A stretch of 64,000 nucleotides of DNA from Escherichia phage vB_Eco_mar004NP2, in the sequence record NC_048205.1; one strand, written 5' to 3'. Below are positions 9,029 to 19,798 of the stretch, piece by piece. The notes beneath the pieces were generated by a model that saw only the letters and a list, made by a program, of their open reading frames with translations, had not been told where the DNA came from and searched no databases. Position 1 is the first letter of the stretch; the number at the start of each line of letters is the position of its first letter. A program made the position numbers and the translations under genes.

Positions 9029-9561
9029 TATTCTGCATGTCTCGGTGCACAATACCTGTACCGAGACTCAAATACAAACTCTCGTTGACAGATAGCTAAA
9101 TGTATGTTATCATAACTCTATGAGTTAATAGAATTAACCATTTAGAGTTGCCACACAGAAGGTGTGGTGGTTCAGTAATTTAAAATTACTAACTTGTAGC
9201 GGAGGATACGGAGCGACAGGACAAGTTAATAAGTAATTTAATATAAATTGCTAGAAACATCACGAGACCTTCTGGCGGGGGCAAAGCTCTATATGAGAAC
9301 CCTGGGGGATCTTATATTTAAAATAAAAGTAAAACTTTTGACCATATAATTTACATTCAAGATGATACACCTGTTGCCGCTCATCTGCTAGGATGGCACA
9401 ACACTTTCTTCTAGACTCCTAAGTTTCTAGGAAAACTCTTACACTCTAGGGCAGTTTCTCTCCAACGTTACATATCCTAGGCCGGTTTAATACAGGGCGG
9501 TTATTGGGAGGGCGGTTATTTCTAGAAGACATTTTTCCAAAACACATTTCCAGAAATTACT

Positions 9562-10163
9562 GTCGGATTCGCACATTGTGTTTCTAGAAATTTATGGTCG
9601 GATTTGCACAATTGCCTAAGTTTTCATGGACACATAATCTCCTGAAAATGGCAGCATTATTTCGGGCCGAAGGCCCATGATTGCCTGAGTTTTTAGAGCC
9701 ACAAGAATTTTCACTTGTCAAGCTATTTTGCCACCTTTAGCAAATAAAATTTTACTTTATCTCCACTAATCTCAAATTAACCCAAATCTTCTCAACTCTT
9801 CCCCCAAAAACGCAGCAAATCAGGCGTTGCACGCCACCCATGCTGCTCCTCCAGTTTCTCCACTTATTTTCTCTCGCTCTCTCATCTTCTCCTCAAACCT
9901 ATACAATCACACACCCTCCAATCGAAGTCACAAAAATCTTGTCGGATTCGCACATCTTAATCCTAGAAAAACCGTGTCGGATTTGCACATATCCCACAGG
10001 ATTCGAACGCAGTTCGAGATTGCTGGAGTTTTTGGGAAAATTCATTGTCGGATTTGCACACTATAAAAATTTTTGGGGTCGGATTTGCACACTACCAAAA
10101 ATTGTCGGATTCGCACATACACGCCCGCGCGTAATCCATGGTGGCAAATGTCGGATTTGCACA
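9562..10163 (+). repeat. array of 8 direct 14-bp iterons GTCGGATT(C/T)GCACA
   Basis: copies at 9562, 9597, 9941, 9976, 10047, 10078, 10104, 10150, all same orientation, irregular spacing. Confidence 0.85.
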
Positions 10164-10189
10164 AAAGCGCAGGGCAATTGCCCTGCGCT
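10164..10189 (-). terminator. perfect GC-rich palindrome; likely terminator for the minus-strand cassette
   Basis: AGCGCAGGGCAATTGCCCTGCGCT, 11-bp stem; on minus strand followed by TTTTGTG. Confidence 0.45.
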
Positions 10190-10190
10190 A

Positions 10191-10400
10191 AATACGAATG
10201 ATAATGAGAATCATTCGTATTTAAAAAGCGGAATAAGAATGATAATAGTTCTCATTTAGAAAGTGAAATGAGAATCAATCTCATTTAAGAAAGGGAATGA
10301 GAACTATTCAAAAAATGAAATGATTCTCATTTAAAAAATGGAATGATTATCGGTTAGATAGTGAAATGCGAATGATAATGATTCTCATTTAAGAATGGAA
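10191..10400. repeat. cluster of short palindromes AATGAGA-N-TCTCATT (hairpin/operator-like)
   Basis: at least 5 palindromic units read directly; extra copies at 10727-10747 and 19721-19738. Confidence 0.75.
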
Positions 10401-10420
10401 GCGAGAAACACTATTATTTA

Positions 10421-10530
10421 AGTTACCCACAGACTTATTAACAGCACGATTTGATTTGACAGAATCCTAGCCATTTTGAGGCGTTATCAACAGACTTATC
10501 CACAGCTTATCCTACTGTATAAATATACAG
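10421..10530. repeat. left arm of ~110-bp inverted repeat with DnaA-box-like sites and 16-bp palindrome
   Basis: reverse complement of 14001-14110 aligns with identical blocks AGTTAYCCACA..TTATTAACAGCAC and ACTTATCCACAG..TTATCCTACTGTATAAATATACAG. Confidence 0.8.
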
Positions 10531-10788
10531 TATTCCTACGCAGTGAATAATTCTAATATAGCGTTAAAACGTCCTAAATCGCATTCTAACGCGCTTAATT
10601 TTGATGGGGATACTAAAACAAGGGCAAAATTGGAGGAGGCTTAAAAATTAGTTAGCTTGCTAACGATCACACAAGGCGACACGTAACACCCTAATCATTA
10701 GCAGGCTAACCATCACGGGCGCGGTTAAATGAGAATCACTCTCATTTGAGAATTGGGGGCACTCCCTGGTAGTTGCGCCCCGTTATTA

Positions 10789-10983
10789 TTAGTCTGGTAG
10801 TCGATGCGTGATCTTTTCCTCCTCCCCGTAGGAATCCACCAAATGCTGATAATAACCATCGTGATCATAAATCACTTTATCATACTCGCCACGCTCGACC
10901 GCTTGTCGGTTTTCCGGCGTATCGGGCACGTAAAAAACATCAACCATTGTACTGATTTTGGTTACAACAATTTTATTGCTCAT
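10789..10983 (-). CDS. hypothetical protein (start trimmed to MSNKIVV)
   Basis: ORF; RBS AGGGG before internal ATG. Confidence 0.45.
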   Translation of the reverse strand: MSNKIVVTKISTMVDVFYVPDTPENRQAVERGEYDKVIYDHDGYYQHLVDSYGEEEKITHRLPD

Positions 10984-11085
10984 AATAACCCCTAGTAAAT
11001 ATATTTTTGCCAATAGTGGCGAACGTTATCGCCACCAGCGGAATCATTTGCAGCCTCAACATTACCCGCGAAAATATATATAATC

Positions 11086-11430
11086 TCATTGCGCCACCTT
11101 TCGAAACGCTGTTTCAATACTATCCGCAGTGGATTGAATATACGCGCCTTTCATTATCAGGCGCTCGGTGCATATCTTGCGAAAAATATTAATAAAATCA
11201 TCTTCATTTTCTGCAATTAACGCCTCACCCATGACCTGAACGTCGCAAGATGCAAAGGTCAAAAATTGAAACGCTAGTTCACGGGCAACGACCGCATTGA
11301 TTTTATAATGCGCCTTGCCTTCATAAATATTAATAACGCCCTTATAAGCTGGGGAAAGCTGATTTAAGTAGTTTGCTAGTAATGCCGGACGGCAATTAGC
11401 AACAAAACGATTGCCTTCATAAATTACCAT
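11086..11430 (-). CDS. hypothetical protein (start trimmed to MVIYEG)
   Basis: ORF; RBS GGGGAG before ATG 11430; abuts upstream gene. Confidence 0.5.
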   Translation of the reverse strand: MVIYEGNRFVANCRPALLANYLNQLSPAYKGVINIYEGKAHYKINAVVARELAFQFLTFASCDVQVMGEALIAENEDDFINIFRKICTERLIMKGAYIQSTADSIETAFRKVAQ

Positions 11431-11431
11431 T

Positions 11432-11644
11432 TTATAGCACTCCCCGAAACGCAGCGTAAAAGGTGGCAAAATGTTTAACTGTTTCAGCTATCACGTTGCC
11501 CCGTTTATCGAATTTTTTCTCGGTAACACGGAAGGCGTTTTTATTTCGCGCTACATATTCAATTTTACAATCTTCCCGCTCGAACGTGTTAACGTCCACC
11601 AGCTTAAAGCCTTTTGAACGTGCAAGGGAAACGTTACGAATCAT
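11432..11644 (-). CDS. hypothetical protein (70 aa)
   Basis: ORF. Confidence 0.5.
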   Translation of the reverse strand: MIRNVSLARSKGFKLVDVNTFEREDCKIEYVARNKNAFRVTEKKFDKRGNVIAETVKHFATFYAAFRGVL

Positions 11645-11646
11645 TT

Positions 11647-11796
11647 TTATTCTCCTTTACTAGTCATGCAGCCCAGCAGATAAGAAAATACAGCGATACC
11701 CGCACCAATAATAACCGCGTGAACGCCGAAAGCTATTGCAAAAAGTGATAAAATAGCGCCCAAGATACCTGCTAGAATAGCTCGAAAAATAACCAT
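11647..11796 (-). CDS. small membrane protein (49 aa), not in ORF track
   Basis: perfect RBS AGGAGG 6 nt before ATG; hydrophobic throughout. Confidence 0.45.
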   Translation of the reverse strand: MVIFRAILAGILGAILSLFAIAFGVHAVIIGAGIAVFSYLLGCMTSKGE

Positions 11797-11845
11797 TTGT
11801 GATAGCCTCCTAGTTATCGGGGGATATTATATCCCCCGTTATTAA

Positions 11846-12109
11846 TTACATTAAAACAATTTTTGCAGCTTGTTTTTTGGTGCAATGTTCCGCCTTCAGG
11901 GTATCCAGCAAAAAGCCAGCCGTTTGCTGATCGATTTTATCGGCGTTATATAGTTCCTGAATGGTATTATAGGTTTTAGCAATACCGAACTCCTGCACCA
12001 TTTCATAGATGACAGCACGATTAGATACCCAGCCTTGCGCGGTAAACAGATGACTAGCAGAAGAATAAGCAACCATTTTAAGCCTCCAAATTTTTGGGAA
12101 AATTTTCAA
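11846..12109 (-). CDS. hypothetical protein (87 aa)
   Basis: ORF. Confidence 0.5.
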   Translation of the reverse strand: MKIFPKIWRLKMVAYSSASHLFTAQGWVSNRAVIYEMVQEFGIAKTYNTIQELYNADKIDQQTAGFLLDTLKAEHCTKKQAAKIVLM

Positions 12110-12182
12110 CCGTCCTTAAACGGTGTAAAGGCATTATAACAAAAAAGGCCACCAATTATGGCGACCTTTACAAAACTTTACA

Positions 12183-12677
12183 TTAAACTACTTGTAATGT
12201 TTCAATATTGAAACATCGTTTCAATTCGTCATGCAAAACAGCGTATTCATCCCATCGGGTACTATCAGGGATATAAACAAGCTGTTTTAGTCGGTTTGCG
12301 TATATTACCGCTTTATTTCCGATTATTTCAGCGCCACCATATTTAATAATTAATTTCATGACGGAATTAATAGGATCGCCGCCGTTTACATATGTGCCGG
12401 ATTTACTTAATTGATAATGATAAAGGCTTGCATATACATTATCATTCTCATACCATTCGCCCGTTTCCTCATCTTCATAGCCATCGCTACCAAAACGAGA
12501 AGCATTATCAACAGCCATTTCATGAGCGAAAGCGTCGAGATCCGTACCAGCAGGAACAAAATATTCCTCAGTATTCCCTTCACCGCAATAGCCAGTATGA
12601 CAATCGACCAAAATGATCATATCATGTTTAGCCTTGCTCACTTCCCCTAGCGAAAACCCATATTTTTCCTCAGCCAT
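12183..12677 (-). CDS. hypothetical acidic protein (164 aa)
   Basis: ORF with RBS AGGAGG; Asp/Glu-rich. Confidence 0.6.
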   Translation of the reverse strand: MAEEKYGFSLGEVSKAKHDMIILVDCHTGYCGEGNTEEYFVPAGTDLDAFAHEMAVDNASRFGSDGYEDEETGEWYENDNVYASLYHYQLSKSGTYVNGGDPINSVMKLIIKYGGAEIIGNKAVIYANRLKQLVYIPDSTRWDEYAVLHDELKRCFNIETLQVV

Positions 12678-12742
12678 TTATTAGCCTCCTATTAATTAAT
12701 AAGGGAATAGTAAAGCGGGGAAACAATCCCCGCTAAATATTA

Positions 12743-13735
12743 TTACTCGCTTTCGGTGCTAGTGGTAAAAGTAGAAATATCGATACCTTTCACCATTTCA
12801 TCAATCATTTCAGCGATGTTAAAACTTTGCACCATTTCTAGCATTGCCGCTTCCATAGCTGCGCCTGCTACCGCTTTCGCTTTCTGGTTATTCGGGGCGT
12901 ACTGGTCAACCGCTACGCTCAGCAGGTTAGCAATAACTACCCGACCAATCGGCGTATCAATATAACCTTTAATCATAAACGGCGCTTTTTTAGCCGCTAC
13001 TTTCGTGATTTGAGTCAATGCAATTTTGCCAGCTTCCAGTTTTGCAGCATTTACAACAGCGGATTTATTAGCGGCAACGATATTAGCGATCTTGGTCATG
13101 GTATTATTTCCTTTGTTTTCAGTAGTTTGAGTGTTAACGCTTTGAGTGTTAGAATTTACAGCATGTTTTTCCGTGTTGTCAATAGGCTGATCTTCCTCCT
13201 TCCAGAAAGAAAAGCCCGCGCTTTCAATATCCCCATCATATACATAAGGGTACACTTCCGACGGTAACAAAAAATTACCGTTATCATCAAAGGCCATTAC
13301 AGCCGCGAAACGATACCCGTCACAATCCGACCGATTCCAGCCAACTGATAAATAACGCCAAAATGAATCAAGAAAATTTTCAATATCATAAAGATCATTG
13401 GGGTTGGCTTCATAATTTTCTATTGAAAAAACTTCTAAGCCTGCCCCAGTATCATAGGCTTTTACTGTGCTACCTTTTACGATTATGAAATCAGTATCCG
13501 GCCCTCGACTAGTGAGCAATTGATAATCTTGATTATATAAAACAAGCGTTGCCCCTTGTTTATATAACGGTAGAAAACTATTCATATCATAGGCATCGAA
13601 ATCACCAAAAAAGTTTTGGTGAATAGTTTCAGCCTTGTTAATAAAATGTTTAATGCTGGTTGTTCTGCTACCGTCCAGCAGGTTACGCAGCGCACCTTTT
13701 AAGACGGTTGCGTTATCTGGTTTATATAGCCTCAT
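12743..13735 (-). CDS. hypothetical protein (330 aa)
   Basis: ORF with RBS GAGGGAGG; first gene of minus-strand cassette. Confidence 0.6.
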   Translation of the reverse strand: MRLYKPDNATVLKGALRNLLDGSRTTSIKHFINKAETIHQNFFGDFDAYDMNSFLPLYKQGATLVLYNQDYQLLTSRGPDTDFIIVKGSTVKAYDTGAGLEVFSIENYEANPNDLYDIENFLDSFWRYLSVGWNRSDCDGYRFAAVMAFDDNGNFLLPSEVYPYVYDGDIESAGFSFWKEEDQPIDNTEKHAVNSNTQSVNTQTTENKGNNTMTKIANIVAANKSAVVNAAKLEAGKIALTQITKVAAKKAPFMIKGYIDTPIGRVVIANLLSVAVDQYAPNNQKAKAVAGAAMEAAMLEMVQSFNIAEMIDEMVKGIDISTFTTSTESE

Positions 13736-14000
13736 TTGTTGGCCTCCCTCGTTAATCGGTGAGTGAATGATAAAGGCAATTTTCTAGCATAGGCAAATAT
13801 TATTTTACCTTTTTATTTTCCTTGCCTAGCGCCTAGTTTTATGCTAACCGCGCAGCGGTACAGTAAAGAGCAAAACACGGTGAAGCCACCAGGGCGACGG
13901 GTGAAGGCTTCACTTTAATATTACCCCACCGCATTTAGCTCGTTAGAAAGCGTTTTAGGCCGCCTAAAATTGATTGCAGTTGTTAACACTACCTTTTTAC

Positions 14001-14110
14001 CCTGTATATTTATACAGTAGGATAACATGTGGATAAGTCTGTGGATAAGTCCTTATATCGTCGCCTATCGTGTCAAATCATTTTGTGCTGTTAATAAACT
14101 TGTGGATAAC
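14001..14110. repeat. right arm of ~110-bp inverted repeat with DnaA boxes
   Basis: TGTGGATAA at 14027-14035, 14039-14047, 14100-14108; palindrome CTGTATATTTATACAG 14001-14016. Confidence 0.8.
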
Positions 14111-14392
14111 TTAAATGATAGTGGTTCTCACTTAGGACGATAGTTTCTTATAGTTATTATTTCTATCGGTTACGATTTCTTATAATTATTATTTCTCATT
14201 AATTTATAAGTATATTATATATCATGAAATAGTTAGTTGGCTAATGAGATTTTCCGTGATTAATAGTCTGCTAACAGTTCCGGCTGTTACAATCCACCAG
14301 CATGATTATCATCCTAGCAACTATTAGTCTGCTATCTTTCCGATGCATACTAACAAATAAAAGTCAATTAATTTATTTCATAAAATAAGTAG

Positions 14393-14425
14393 TTATCCAC
14401 TGGAAAATAAAAGTCAAGTGGATAA
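14393..14425. promoter_or_regulatory. inverted pair of DnaA boxes
   Basis: AGTTATCCAC..N17..GTGGATAACT, perfect 10-bp inverted repeat matching DnaA-box consensus TTATCCACA. Confidence 0.6.
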
Positions 14426-14826
14426 CTAGGAAAATTTCATTTTTGCTTTTGGGGATAAGTTATCAACAAGGCTAGAATGCGCCTAAAACGCCCTATAACG
14501 CGATGAAGTTTTTAGCCATGCCATTGCATTGCCTACCCTCGTTTATCGCTACCACGAGCTTTTTAGTTTTTGTCAAGTAGGGCAAGGCAAATATAAATGA
14601 AAAAATTACTTGCCAACCTGCTGGGTTTTATGGTATTCGCGCGCCCGTTTCCTTTAATTTTAGTGCGCCGCGCCCAGGTCGCCGCACGGTGTCCGGTGGC
14701 ATTTTGTCTTTACGTTTCTTTACAAAAATAAGGTTGCGCCATTTTTACTATTTGCTATTATTTATCTCGTAGGGCGGCAATGACGAACTACACGGCGGGA
14801 AGTTTACCGCCGCGCTCTTTAAAAAT

Positions 14827-15116
14827 TGGGTACATCTTAAAGTCTATCGGCGGTAAACTTATATTATAAGGAATCGCAGATATGAAACAAACTTTATTGA
14901 TCACTGGTAAACCAGCTAAAAAATTAGATGGTACTACTAAAAAATTGTTGACAATAGCCCAGCAATCCGTAAAATACCGATTTGCTCAGTACAAGAAAGG
15001 CCGCCAGCAGGGTTTAGAAATGATCTGGCGTAATATTATGATCGACCTGAAAGAAAATCATAAAAAACTGCAAAAAACAGTTTGACACCCTAGCCGATAG
15101 GCTTTAAGATGTACCC
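14827..15116. repeat. 24-bp inverted repeat pair flanking the 67-aa gene
   Basis: GGGTACATCTTAAAGTCTATCGGC (14827-14850) versus GCCGATAGGCTTTAAGATGTACCC (15093-15116), 1 mismatch. Confidence 0.7.
14882..15085 (+). CDS. small basic protein (67 aa)
   Basis: ORF with RBS AAGGAA; Lys-rich. Confidence 0.5.
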   Translation: MKQTLLITGKPAKKLDGTTKKLLTIAQQSVKYRFAQYKKGRQQGLEMIWRNIMIDLKENHKKLQKTV

Positions 15117-15315
15117 AGTTCGATGAGAGCGATAACTTGATACAATTTGACGGTTAGGTGATTCCCCATAAATCATCCTGCCCCCTAACTGGGATATAGC
15201 AGCCTGCGTGGAGTTCCTTAAATTGATTATAGCGGTGAGCGGATTGTTGCTTATTACCTGCTACTTTCTAGCAGGTAATGCGGAACAATCCCCTAAATAA
15301 CTTGGAGTTTATACT

Positions 15316-15567
15316 ATGCAAAACGTTATTACCGCGCCTAAAATTGGTCAATCCGTTTTTATTCCTTTCGTTACTAAAACGGATGAACTAACCGGAAAAG
15401 CCGAACGTATTAAAGGTGCGGCGCTTATGCCGTTTGATACAATCGACGCGGTATACGCTGAAAATGAACGTAGTAACAACGGCAAAACCGTTTTTAGCGT
15501 TCGCGTTAAATCCGGCGACGTTGTAAAGGTTGTACAGCGTAACGAAAAATGGGAAGCTGTAGCGTAA
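15316..15567 (+). CDS. hypothetical pre-early protein (83 aa)
   Basis: ORF with conserved upstream box ..CCCCTAAAT..GGAGTTT.. Confidence 0.55.
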   Translation: MQNVITAPKIGQSVFIPFVTKTDELTGKAERIKGAALMPFDTIDAVYAENERSNNGKTVFSVRVKSGDVVKVVQRNEKWEAVA

Positions 15568-15663: not shown

Positions 15664-16071
15664 ATGACTAACGTTAAAACCGCAAAATTTGCTTGGAATG
15701 AAGAAAACACTCAAAAAGCTGTTTCTATGTACCAGCAGTTAATTAATGAAAACGGTTTAGATTTCGCAAATAGCGACGGTTTAAAAGAGATTGCAAAAGC
15801 AGTGGGCGCGTCTTCTCCCGTGTCTGTTCGCTCAAAATTGACCAGCGCAAAAGCGTATCAGAAAAGCGATAAGCCTCGCAAAGTTGGCGGCGGTAGCTCA
15901 ATCCGCAAAGCTCACTATGTACGCGTTATCGCTAAACATGCTATTGATTCCGGCATTATTAAAGACGCCGACGATCTGGCAAGTCTGGAAAGTGCAAAAC
16001 TTGAAACGCTGGACGCCGTAGCGCAACTGTTAGGCGTTGCCGATGAAGTAAAACAGGCCGCAGGTGAATAA
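15664..16071 (+). CDS. hypothetical pre-early protein (135 aa)
   Basis: ORF with conserved upstream box. Confidence 0.6.
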   Translation: MTNVKTAKFAWNEENTQKAVSMYQQLINENGLDFANSDGLKEIAKAVGASSPVSVRSKLTSAKAYQKSDKPRKVGGGSSIRKAHYVRVIAKHAIDSGIIKDADDLASLESAKLETLDAVAQLLGVADEVKQAAGE

Positions 16072-16422: not shown

Positions 16423-18087
16423 ATGATTATTTCCGCAGAAAAACAAACCGTTATCCTGAAAATGGCCGCTGACTTTAATTTCTATGGTAAACGTCTGCGC
16501 GCTACTAAACTGGAGGTCTGCGACGATATATCAAAAGCGGTCTACGATACAACAAAACACTCGACCGCTATCTGCGACTGGTTGGAAGCAAATAAACCAG
16601 CTAAACCGAAAGCGGCGAAAGTAGCAAAAGCCATTAAAAACGATGAGCGTCCAGAAGCGGCGGGGATTGTTTCTAGCACGGTTGAGCAATGGGAAGTAAA
16701 GCAGGGTAAACGCTTTATTATTACGTCGATTCAGAATAATACTTTCCCGCATAAAAACTTTTTAGCCTCATTGGAGCAATTTGCTAAATATATCGGCGCT
16801 GATTTGCTGGTTAGCAAGTTTATTTATAACAAAAACGGTTTTCAAAATGGCGAGGGTGCAGAAGGAATAAAATATGATTCCGCATTTGACAAATATATCT
16901 GCAATAAAAACGTGTTTTTAAATAACCGCCGTTTTGCTTTCATGGCTGAAATTAACGTTTTGCCAACCGCAGATTATCCGCTTTCTGGATTCGCTGAAAC
17001 TGCAACGGCGCTTAATCTGGAAGGTCTGGCAATTGGTCACGCTAAAATTACCGCTGAAAGCGTGCCAGCTTTAAAAGGTGAAGTAGTGCGCCGTATGTAC
17101 TCAACCGGAACGGCAACGCTCAAAAACTACATTCAGCAGAAAGCAGGACAAAAGGCCGAGGCGCTGCATAACTTCGGTGCGCTAATTGTCGAGTTCGACG
17201 AGGACGGGGAATTTTTTGTACGCCAGCTCGAAACGATGGACGAAAGCGGGGTATTTTATGATCTGAATGTGTGCGCTACTCCTGCCGGATGCTATGAGAC
17301 ATCGGGGCATGTTTTAGGCTTGCAATACGGCGATATTCACGCAGAAAAACTAGATGATGATTGTGCCGTTGCGTCATGGGCTGGCGAAAATAGCTTGCTT
17401 GATATTCTCAAGCCTAAATATCAGTTTATCCATGACGTGCATGATTTTACATCACGCAACCATCACAACCGCGCATCCGGTGTATTCCTAGCAAAACAAT
17501 ACGCCGCCGGACGTGATAAGGTATTAGATGATCTTATCGATACGGGGCGCGTGCTGGAATCAATGGAACGTGATTTCTCGCAAACAATCATTGTTGAATC
17601 TAATCACGATTTGGCGCTATCCCGTTGGCTTGATGATCGTAATGCTAACATTAAAGACGATCCAGCAAACGCGGAACTATATCACCGCCTAAATGCCGCG
17701 ATTTATGGAGCTATTGCAGAAAAAGACGATACTTTCAACGTGCTAGATTATGCGCTGCGCAAGGTTGCAGGTTGTGAGTTTAACGCCATTTTTCTAACTA
17801 CTGACCAATCTTTCAAGATTGCAGGCATTGAATGCGGCGTACACGGTCACAACGGCATTAACGGCAGCCGTGGCAATCCTAAACAATTTAAGAAATTGGG
17901 CAAATTAAACACCGGACACACTCACACCGCCAGCATTTATGGCGGCGTGTATACCGCTGGCGTAGCTGGTAGTCTGGACATGGGTTACAACGTTGGCGCG
18001 TCAAGCTGGACGCAAACGCATTTAATTACCTATGCAAACGGTCAGCGCACTTTGATTGACTTTAAAAACGGTAAATTCTTTGCGTAA
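16423..18087 (+). CDS. A1: A1-like pre-early protein (554 aa)
   Basis: size and position next to dmp-like gene as in T5 pre-early region; GDIH and GHNG motifs compatible with phosphoesterase-like fold (recalled, not searched). Confidence 0.6.
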   Translation: MIISAEKQTVILKMAADFNFYGKRLRATKLEVCDDISKAVYDTTKHSTAICDWLEANKPAKPKAAKVAKAIKNDERPEAAGIVSSTVEQWEVKQGKRFIITSIQNNTFPHKNFLASLEQFAKYIGADLLVSKFIYNKNGFQNGEGAEGIKYDSAFDKYICNKNVFLNNRRFAFMAEINVLPTADYPLSGFAETATALNLEGLAIGHAKITAESVPALKGEVVRRMYSTGTATLKNYIQQKAGQKAEALHNFGALIVEFDEDGEFFVRQLETMDESGVFYDLNVCATPAGCYETSGHVLGLQYGDIHAEKLDDDCAVASWAGENSLLDILKPKYQFIHDVHDFTSRNHHNRASGVFLAKQYAAGRDKVLDDLIDTGRVLESMERDFSQTIIVESNHDLALSRWLDDRNANIKDDPANAELYHRLNAAIYGAIAEKDDTFNVLDYALRKVAGCEFNAIFLTTDQSFKIAGIECGVHGHNGINGSRGNPKQFKKLGKLNTGHTHTASIYGGVYTAGVAGSLDMGYNVGASSWTQTHLITYANGQRTLIDFKNGKFFA

Positions 18088-18911: not shown

Positions 18912-19646
18912 ATGAATAAAGCTATCATGAATCTTTCCCGCAGCTTCCCGCATATTTCCCGCGTCATGATTTGGGATTTAGACGGCACTATCATTAATTC
19001 TTTCCATCGTGTAGCACCCTGCTTTGATAGCGAGGGCAATTTAGATTTAAATAAGTATAAAAATGAAGCGTGTAAACACCATTTAATAATGCAAGATACT
19101 TTATTGCCATTGGTTGAATATATGCGCCAGTGCATGAATGACGCAAATACTTTAAACATTATTTGCACCGCTCGACTGATGAGTAAGTCGGACTATTATT
19201 TCTTGCGTAAACAAGGGTTGCGCGGTCGTGGTAATAGTAATATCCGCGTATTTTCCCGCGATACACTACACAAATATTTTAAAGCTGATAAGGTTAGCGA
19301 AATATACCACAGCAAAGACGCAGTATATAAATCTTATTATTTTGAATTATTTAAACAGTTATATCCTAACGCTGATTTTACAATGATTGATGATCATAAA
19401 GGCGTGCTATCAGCGGCAGCGTCATACGGATTTAAAACGCTGGACGCACAAGCCGTTAATGATATTCTATCAATCGGCGTGGCATTGATAGGTGAAACCT
19501 TTATTGATGAATCTCTCGACGATGATAATGATTATCAATTCCTAGCTGACCGTTTAAAATTATGCTGGGAAGGTATGACCGAGGAAGAACGCGCAGAATA
19601 TAGTTGCAGTCCTCAACAATATATTGAGAAATTAAAAGTTGCCTAA
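18912..19646 (+). CDS. dmp: HAD-family 5'-deoxyribonucleotidase (dmp-like)
   Basis: N-terminal HAD motif I MIWDLDGTI; 244 aa. Confidence 0.7.
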   Translation: MNKAIMNLSRSFPHISRVMIWDLDGTIINSFHRVAPCFDSEGNLDLNKYKNEACKHHLIMQDTLLPLVEYMRQCMNDANTLNIICTARLMSKSDYYFLRKQGLRGRGNSNIRVFSRDTLHKYFKADKVSEIYHSKDAVYKSYYFELFKQLYPNADFTMIDDHKGVLSAAASYGFKTLDAQAVNDILSIGVALIGETFIDESLDDDNDYQFLADRLKLCWEGMTEEERAEYSCSPQQYIEKLKVA

Positions 19647-19798
19647 CAATTAAAGTTGAAATAGTCACGGTGTGTAATGATACCATGCCGTGACTATTAG
19701 CCTGCTAAGTACCGGGCGGTAATGAGACTCATTCTCATCTGGGGGGCCACTGGACACACCCACGCGTACGTAATCCAAAGAAATTGGCAAAAGTCAAA

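Follow-up and report, generated by a model that had tools for sequence, protein, structure and literature searches.

Entry of T5 DNA into the host stops at 8% of the genome and then restarts, a question open since the 1960s, and a 2026 PNAS paper still treats the mechanism of the entry stop as open. DnaA boxes are the only published candidate handle for this stop, and their presence in the injection-stop copy of a T5 repeat was reported in 1987 (Heusterspreute et al., according to Davison 2020, bioRxiv 10.1101/866236). Comparing 25 T5-like phages, Davison (2020) described eight boxes per first-step-transfer (FST) region, arranged in pairs with a 3-bp gap, and proposed that membrane-bound DnaA sitting on the boxes stops DNA entry. 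The same preprint points to an old gel with a minor FST band near the second copy of the module, disfavours a role in replication given that the T5 origins lie near the genome centre, and notes that transfer into FhuA proteoliposomes is complete; since the stop is absent there, a host component is needed for it. Here we analyse a stretch of 64,000 nucleotides from Escherichia phage vB_Eco_mar004NP2 (NC_048205.1), referred to as the window in its whole 64-kb length, in which an earlier note made from the sequence alone had picked out a cluster of DnaA boxes. The core of that finding, including the hypothesis of stalled DNA entry, is already described. The DnaA-box elements of T5 FST DNA are reportedly also found in work by Wang et al. 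in 2005 and by Davison in 2015.

Over 13000-15500 the window shares 100% identity with Salmonella phage PMBT29 and 92% with BF23, where the match lies inside the annotated left terminal repeat. By these identities the phage is a BF23-like Tequintavirus; the earlier note had rightly taken it for a phage of the T5 type. The box cluster occupies an untranslated gap of about 860 bp separating the two divergent pre-early operons of the terminal repeat, and its location, taken from the annotation of BF23 and SIA3lw and from the T5 alignment, identifies it as the central untranslated repeat block of the FST DNA; the equivalent gap in T5 is called "Repeat Regions 1+2". Window positions 13601-14132 align to T5 6551-6022, taking in the annotated inverted repeats C and D, and 14363-14800 align to T5 5418-5001. 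In T5, the homing-endonuclease gene hegG sits between the two matching stretches.

The central element is a 132-nt module at 14002-14133 on the plus strand, which aligns to T5 AY587007 6022-6152, where inverted repeats C (IRC) and D (IRD) are annotated, and which is the IRCspacerIRD, or "g", copy of T5 Repeat Region 2. It consists of a 16-bp palindrome, a pair of boxes, a 40-bp spacer, a second pair of boxes and a conserved 24-nt tail. Box 1 (14028-14036) is a perfect TTATCCACA, read as TGTGGATAA on the other strand, and is followed after a 3-bp gap (GTC) by box 2 (14040-14048), which is likewise perfect; box 3 (14089-14097), TGTTAATAA = TTATTAACA, has two mismatches and is a "DnaA*" box in Davison's terms, and box 4 (14101-14109), again a perfect TTATCCACA, follows it after another 3 bp. 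All four boxes lie in the same orientation, on the minus strand, with 40 bp between the inner members of the pairs 14028/14040 and 14089/14101, and this layout of two pairs with 3-bp gaps at constant distance is found in 18 of 19 aligned copies. The tail, CTTAAATGATAGTGGTTCTCACTT (14110-14133, plus strand), belongs, judged from its inverted-repeat matches and its variants across copies, to the AATGAGAATCAnTCTCATTTAA family of repeats found in the injection-stop region, from which it has diverged. The three copies of TGTGGATAA announced in the earlier note are present, starting at 14028, 14040 and 14101; their span is 14028-14109, so that the range 14027-14108 given for them was off by one, and the 12 bp it placed between the two tandem copies is a start-to-start distance, their separation being 3 bp. 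It had missed box 3, the palindrome at 14002-14017, a back-to-back pair of boxes further to the right and the inverted partner of the whole block.

Exact TTATCCACA was found four times in the window against an expectation of 0.62, and no shuffle reached four; the sole exact copy outside the cluster lies at 10496. Box density was also compared with 300 first-order Markov simulations of the window. An interval of 450 bp holds seven 9-mers that differ from the box at one position or none (mean 2.0 and maximum 4 in the densest simulated interval), and an interval of 100 bp holds three exact boxes, where the simulations never gave more than two. The clustering of the boxes is not due to chance. When the R-type pattern TT(A/T)TNCACA was applied, the three perfect boxes of the cluster and the one in the partner matched, and the other nine box-like 9-mers of both untranslated regions deviated at one or two positions.

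The inverted partner, the "r" copy (IRD'spacerIRC'), is found at 10399-10530 on the minus strand. It is 132 nt long, 80% complementary to 14002-14133 and identical to the g copy in the order of its parts, with boxes at 10423 (TTACCCACA), 10435 (TTATTAACA), 10484 (TTATCAACA) and 10496 (TTATCCACA) and a palindrome at 10515-10530 within a LexA-like 20-mer (10513-10532). The partner falls where T5 records annotate the injection stop signal, IRD', IRC' and palindrome D (palD) being annotated in T5, and it is situated just inside the shear point of first-step transfer. An extra box-like 9-mer, TTATTCACT (10542-10550, minus strand), stands 9 nt from the r-copy palindrome in the orientation opposite to boxes 1-4; it is conserved in r copies and reads TTATCCACT in loci L024 and L042. 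Since it faces the other way from boxes 1-4, the LexA-like site has boxes pointing towards it from both sides.

The palindrome at the head of the g copy (CTGTATATTTATACAG, 14002-14017; the T5 "palindrome D") lies within a 20-mer, CCCTGTATATTTATACAGTA (14000-14019), that matches 17 of the 20 positions of TACTGTATATATATACAGTA, a consensus used as a LexA site in the literature, and the r-copy 20-mer, TACTGTATAAATATACAGTA (10513-10532), matches the same consensus at 19 of 20. The pattern CTGT-W8-ACAG occurs twice in the window, both times in a module palindrome, with a simulated mean of 0.017 and never two occurrences in the 300 simulations. The palindrome is also the most conserved block of the module: CTGT and ACAG are both intact in 74 of 86 aligned copies (among the variants listed), and the AT-rich centre varies among phages, that of Proteus phages (ATATAATT) being non-palindromic. 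It persists in every T5-like phage examined, those of Klebsiella, Serratia, Proteus, Providencia and Vibrio among them. In the Proteus phages Stubb and PM135 (L061 and L062), the site on the A2 side, about 2 kb upstream of A1, has the palindrome followed directly by TTGACA and carries no DnaA boxes, so the palindrome can be kept on its own. Its conservation pattern is that expected of a LexA-type site rather than of a hairpin, and host LexA probably binds it. T5 records label the site only "palindrome D", the Davison preprint (bioRxiv 10.1101/866236) considered it a possible cleavage site, and a literature search found no paper linking T5-like phages to LexA boxes; its resemblance to a LexA operator appears to be new.

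Conservation was followed in FST regions gathered from annotated relatives and in 79 IMG/VR loci pulled with an A1 protein profile, and substitutions were counted over 86 distinct module copies from T5-like phages, in which the architecture is kept. Every cultured T5-like phage locus, down to 43% A1 identity, carries the palindrome with a box cluster at about 6 kb upstream of A1, on the side of the injection stop, and the same loci apart from those of the Proteus phages have palindrome and boxes about 2.4 kb upstream of A1 as well; these phages infect Escherichia, Salmonella, Klebsiella, Serratia, Proteus, Providencia and Vibrio. The flanks have become unalignable in the Vibrio, Proteus and Providencia phages, but the layout of palindrome, 9-11 nt, box, 2-4 nt, box, about 48 nt and box is retained, and the boxes are mostly perfect TTATCCACA. 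The module was found in none of 32 distant metagenomic contigs with A1 homologues (L063-L094), which range in GC from 32 to 66% and whose A1 homologues, 39-47% identical, mostly match only from about residue 58-98 onward; the nuclease/phosphoesterase core of A1 has therefore spread well beyond the T5-like phages.

Judged by these counts, the outer boxes are the strong ones and the inner boxes are usually weaker. Box 1 is perfect in 53 of the 86 copies (TTATCCCCA in nine, TTATCAACA in nine; 76 within one mismatch) and box 4 in 62 (TTATTCACA in seven, TTATCCCCA in six; 71 fit TTWTNCACA). Box 2 is perfect in 27 copies and otherwise reads TTATTAACA (17), TTTTACACA (13), TTATCAACA (10) or TTTTGCACA (6) in its listed variants, and box 3 reads TTATTAACA in 27, the perfect sequence in 23 and TTATCAACA in 20. 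The perfect consensus outnumbers every variant at boxes 1, 2 and 4, and TTTTACACA and TTTTGCACA differ at positions 3 and 5 only, those left free by TT(A/T)TNCACA. This substitution pattern, together with the retention of the same 9-mer across phages with diverged A2 and flanks, would suit a reader supplied by the host and itself conserved better than a phage protein evolving along with its sites. What the element is, that it is not random, how far it is conserved and how its boxes vary are matters of observation.

Our preferred reading, to which we give a probability of roughly 0.4, is that this conserved module of sites for host proteins, namely DnaA and probably LexA, helps to pause or anchor the DNA that is transferred first. 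Nucleation of DnaA on the perfect boxes would be followed by its spread onto the neighbouring weak ones, LexA would probably occupy the palindrome, and the resulting complex would contribute to arresting or anchoring the DNA as it enters, until transfer is set going again by A1 and A2, both pre-early proteins; the copy at 14002-14133 would be a secondary or partner site. We infer that host proteins bind the module in vivo and that this binding causes the pause. Among the roles offered in the earlier note, stalling of DNA entry fares best, as it is the published hypothesis and fits the r copy at the shear point, the minor FST band and the proteoliposome result. The other roles offered there come out weaker: replication initiation is set against origins that are central, titration against a total of about 12 sites, and transcription control against the lack of a consistent promoter. 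Titration of DnaA in particular was rejected as implausible, since about 12 sites on single-copy DNA should not be able to deplete the protein.

Several points weigh against a pause mediated by host proteins on the module. There is no account of how cytoplasmic or membrane proteins could halt translocation by binding DNA that has already entered the cell, and a 2023 paper on BF23 states that experimental studies of these sites are lacking. Our literature searches found nothing on the growth of T5 in dnaA hosts, and a search on DnaA binding to the variants TTATCAACA and TTATCCACT returned incidental sequence matches only. The inner boxes often carry a change of C6 to A (TTATCAACA, TTATTAACA), which places them outside the stringent consensus, one box is lost in T5, and a second cluster of boxes, described below, is absent from T5-type phages. 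The gap GTC is kept in 77 of 86 copies and is as conserved as the boxes, as are spacer motifs and the tail, and the constraint is therefore not limited to the DnaA 9-mers. Low-affinity arrays in oriC are reportedly spaced by 2 bp (a spacing said to come from Rozgaja et al. in 2011), against 3 bp in the module.

The second cluster lies at 14390-14468. The inverted pair claimed for it was recovered exactly, AGTTATCCAC occupying 14391-14400 and GTGGATAACT 14418-14427, at a distance of 17 bp; the two sequences are the cores of 15-nt arms, 14390-14404 and 14414-14428, which are 93% complementary. The whole inverted repeat, TAGTTATCCACTGGA / TCAAGTGGATAACTA (14390-14428), holds two TTATCCACT 9-mers, at 14393 (plus strand) and 14417 (minus strand). 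It is followed by the back-to-back pair TGGGGATAA-G-TTATCAACA (14450-14468), made up of TTATCCCCA at 14450-14458 (minus) and TTATCAACA at 14460-14468 (plus) with one mismatch each, and 14456-14470 is an inverted copy of box 4 plus flanks. Across loci, three alleles occupy this site. Allele A, the BF23 type found in this window, has both TTATCCACT arms and TGGGGATAA-G-TTATCAACA; allele B, of Epseptimavirus and Klebsiella phages, has only the right arm, AAGTGGATAACT, with a degenerate back-to-back pair (TGTATAAGTTATyAACA); and allele C, the T5 type, has no boxes and lacks the back-to-back pair. Judged by this distribution, the inverted pair is lineage-specific and not a general feature, only its right arm being old. 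As T5 has none of the second-cluster boxes, 14390-14468 is dispensable. The recognition of the second cluster as one of three alleles, with four extra boxes in one of them, appears to be new. A block, AAATTTCATTTTTGCTTTT, at 14431-14449 is present in all three alleles, slightly changed in T5-type phages. This block resembles the upstream/-35 half of T5-type promoters, but it is followed by no -10 hexamer at 16-18 bp.

The alternative that survives best is transcriptional control or insulation, in which modules and hairpins would serve as roadblocks, operators or terminators dependent on DnaA or LexA, keeping the two divergent pre-early operons apart and preventing transcription from running on beyond the terminal repeat. 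We regard it as possible but on balance doubtful. Its setting is favourable, as the gap lies between divergent operons with promoters nearby and the r copy lies downstream of the leftward operon. The leftward pre-early operon has a predicted sigma-70 promoter, TTGCCT-18-TATCAT (13767-13796, minus strand), the T5 promoter annotated at AY543070 6411-6489 maps to window positions of about 13741-13819, and a promoter upstream of gene 011 is reported as experimentally characterised. However, this promoter stands clear of the module by about 200 bp, and the T5 promoters P-H22 and P-D/E20 map several hundred bp to the right. One predicted promoter of the window allele does overlap the palindrome with its -10 hexamer, but the overlap is not conserved; a conserved promoter over the palindrome and boxes was rejected, the -35 hexamer differing in Epseptimavirus and T5-type g copies and being absent in r copies. 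A similar dependence on the allele is seen for the hairpins. For the inverted pair at 14390-14428 the folding energy is -10.2 kcal/mol in DNA and -16.5 kcal/mol in RNA (z -4.6), but a scan found no terminator there, and the stem has no T-run behind it, the plus strand continuing GGAAAATTTC. At the same position a variant of allele C, L034, has a strong terminator-like hairpin followed by a T-run, with compensatory changes, whereas the T5 version folds at -3.2 kcal/mol, which is not significant, and Epseptimavirus (allele B) has no significant fold. With hairpin strength dependent on the allele, a conserved terminator at the inverted pair was rejected as a general feature.

A decidedly unlikely alternative assigns the module to phage-encoded readers, for example A2 with A1, which would use it for restart, cleavage or circularisation, the resemblance to host sites being incidental or relevant only to competition. 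Second-step transfer requires A1 and A2, A2 is annotated as DNA-binding, and all 132 bp are conserved, 3-bp gap, spacer and tail as well as boxes, which suggests that DnaA is not the only reader. The AlphaFold2 (AF2) model of A2 is predicted to be all-helical, with an N-terminal unit like a helix-turn-helix and a basic linker. However, neither sequence nor structure comparison gave A2 a significant match, whether with DnaA domain IV, with LexA or with any other protein; no PDB sequence match was found, and the best hit of a fold search with the AF2 model, at E 0.4, was not significant. The pre-early proteins were rejected as obvious readers, Pfam returning only domains of unknown function for them. 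Moreover, the sites hold the host consensus even where A1 identity has dropped to 33-46%, whereas a co-evolving reader would be expected to drift, and agreement with the LexA consensus at 19/20 is hard to attribute to coincidence.

Very unlikely, in our view, is a role as recombination anchors, in which the inverted modules would bracket a variable right-hand pre-early cassette and provide homology for its exchange between phages. The modules do flank 10530-14002, between which gene content varies greatly while they themselves are conserved, and homing-endonuclease insertions occur beside them, but plain homology would not need a host-factor consensus, nor would it survive as box arrays in unalignable phages. 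A DnaA-dependent replication origin seems least credible of all. The part of the gap richest in AT (GC 0.20-0.27 at 14100-14250) does come after the four boxes; it contains a pair of 21-nt direct repeats, TTTCTTATAgTTATTATTTCT, starting at 14144 and 14176 (14144-14196, plus strand), and could serve as an unwinding region. However, T5 origins lie near the genome centre, replication genes are on second-step DNA and so have yet to enter the cell while first-step transfer is under way, T5 has no counterpart of the AT-rich repeat segment 14134-14199, the partner at 10399-10530 has no AT-rich neighbour, and a Pfam scan of the neighbouring proteins found no replication genes near the cluster.

The surroundings of the r copy hold further repeats. 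About ten copies of GTCGGATT(T/C)GCACA occur at 9555-10170, on both sides of the position (about 9743) where the terminal repeat is estimated to have its inner boundary, and probably correspond to the "direct repeat D" series of T5. Fur-box-like 19-mers are over-represented in the window, with 21 matches at five or fewer mismatches to GATAATGATAATCATTATC against 4.8 +/- 2.5 in simulated sequence. They form two clusters, one at 10200-10392 in the injection-stop repeats, around the calculated shear point, and one at 19518-19736, with the best matches (16/19), just beyond the estimated outer boundary of the terminal repeat; both lie in AT-rich, low-complexity sequence, and they may alternatively be terminase sites. 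The resemblance of these neighbouring repeats to Fur boxes appears to be new. A bolder form of our preferred reading, in which the modules would be composite landing pads for DnaA, LexA and perhaps Fur, and the nucleoprotein complex assembled on them would be the long-sought host factor that pauses entry at 8%, seems to us unlikely.

The operons on either side of the gap contain, to the left, the homologue of T5 gene 011 (12743-13735, minus strand; DUF7566) and, to the right on the plus strand, small open reading frames (ORFs) followed by A2 (15664-16071) and A1 (16423-18087). Small ORFs within the gap, such as 14027-14143, were rejected as genes, their block-wise conservation with insertions and deletions matching that of repeat elements and the annotation of relatives being inconsistent. 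An Rfam scan of the gap at a permissive E-value gave only matches far below the gathering scores, and an origin of the module from host DNA was rejected, as no meaningful match was found in E. coli genomes. The repeat region is closed by the IRB arm (14481-14507, plus strand), which pairs with the IRB' arm at 13934-13960 (plus strand) in accordance with the IRB/IRB' annotation of T5, and a related motif lies upstream of both module copies. Related IRB-type motifs, CGTTTTAGG / CCTAAAACG, flank both modules of the window (13934-13960, 14481-14507 and about 10560-10590), and the Providencia phages L058 and L059 have tandem GTCTAAACGTCT / GGACGTCT repeats downstream of the module.

For work on the entry stop, this analysis narrows the targets: boxes 1 and 4 are constrained, 14390-14468 is dispensable, and the candidate LexA site would bring in a second host protein. 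If host proteins do set the brake, the level of DnaA-ATP, the SOS state and the iron status of the cell could affect infection by these phages, a large group used in biocontrol.

The closest described system is the pair of T5 elements IRCspacerIRD and IRD'spacerIRC', with which the modules of the window share the locus, an inverted repeat of 131-132 bp, four boxes per element, 3-bp gaps and a constant pair distance, as well as the position relative to A2, gene 011 and the injection-stop region. The window goes beyond T5 in its four additional box-like 9-mers (14393, 14417, 14450 and 14460), which are absent from T5 and go unmentioned in the Davison preprint, and where that preprint leaves the palindrome at the element head without a LexA interpretation, we read it as a LexA-like site. 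With the LexA (SOS) operators of Gammaproteobacteria, CTGT-N8-ACAG, the palindromes share matches of 19/20 and 17/20, conserved arms and a variable AT-rich centre. The CCAG variant found in phage copies is also known from natural E. coli operators. Unlike such operators, the phage site is found in a virulent phage, has no consistent promoter overlap and forms a composite with DnaA boxes. The module differs from the oriC, datA and DARS clusters of E. coli in that all four of its boxes have one orientation, its weak sites are C6-to-A variants and not the known I, tau or C sites, and origin activity is not expected of it. What it shares with these clusters is the presence of several R-type TTATCCACA boxes within about 100 bp. 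Strong boxes flanking weak neighbours, with the strong sites nucleating cooperative filling, are the architecture of oriC, which the phage module resembles.

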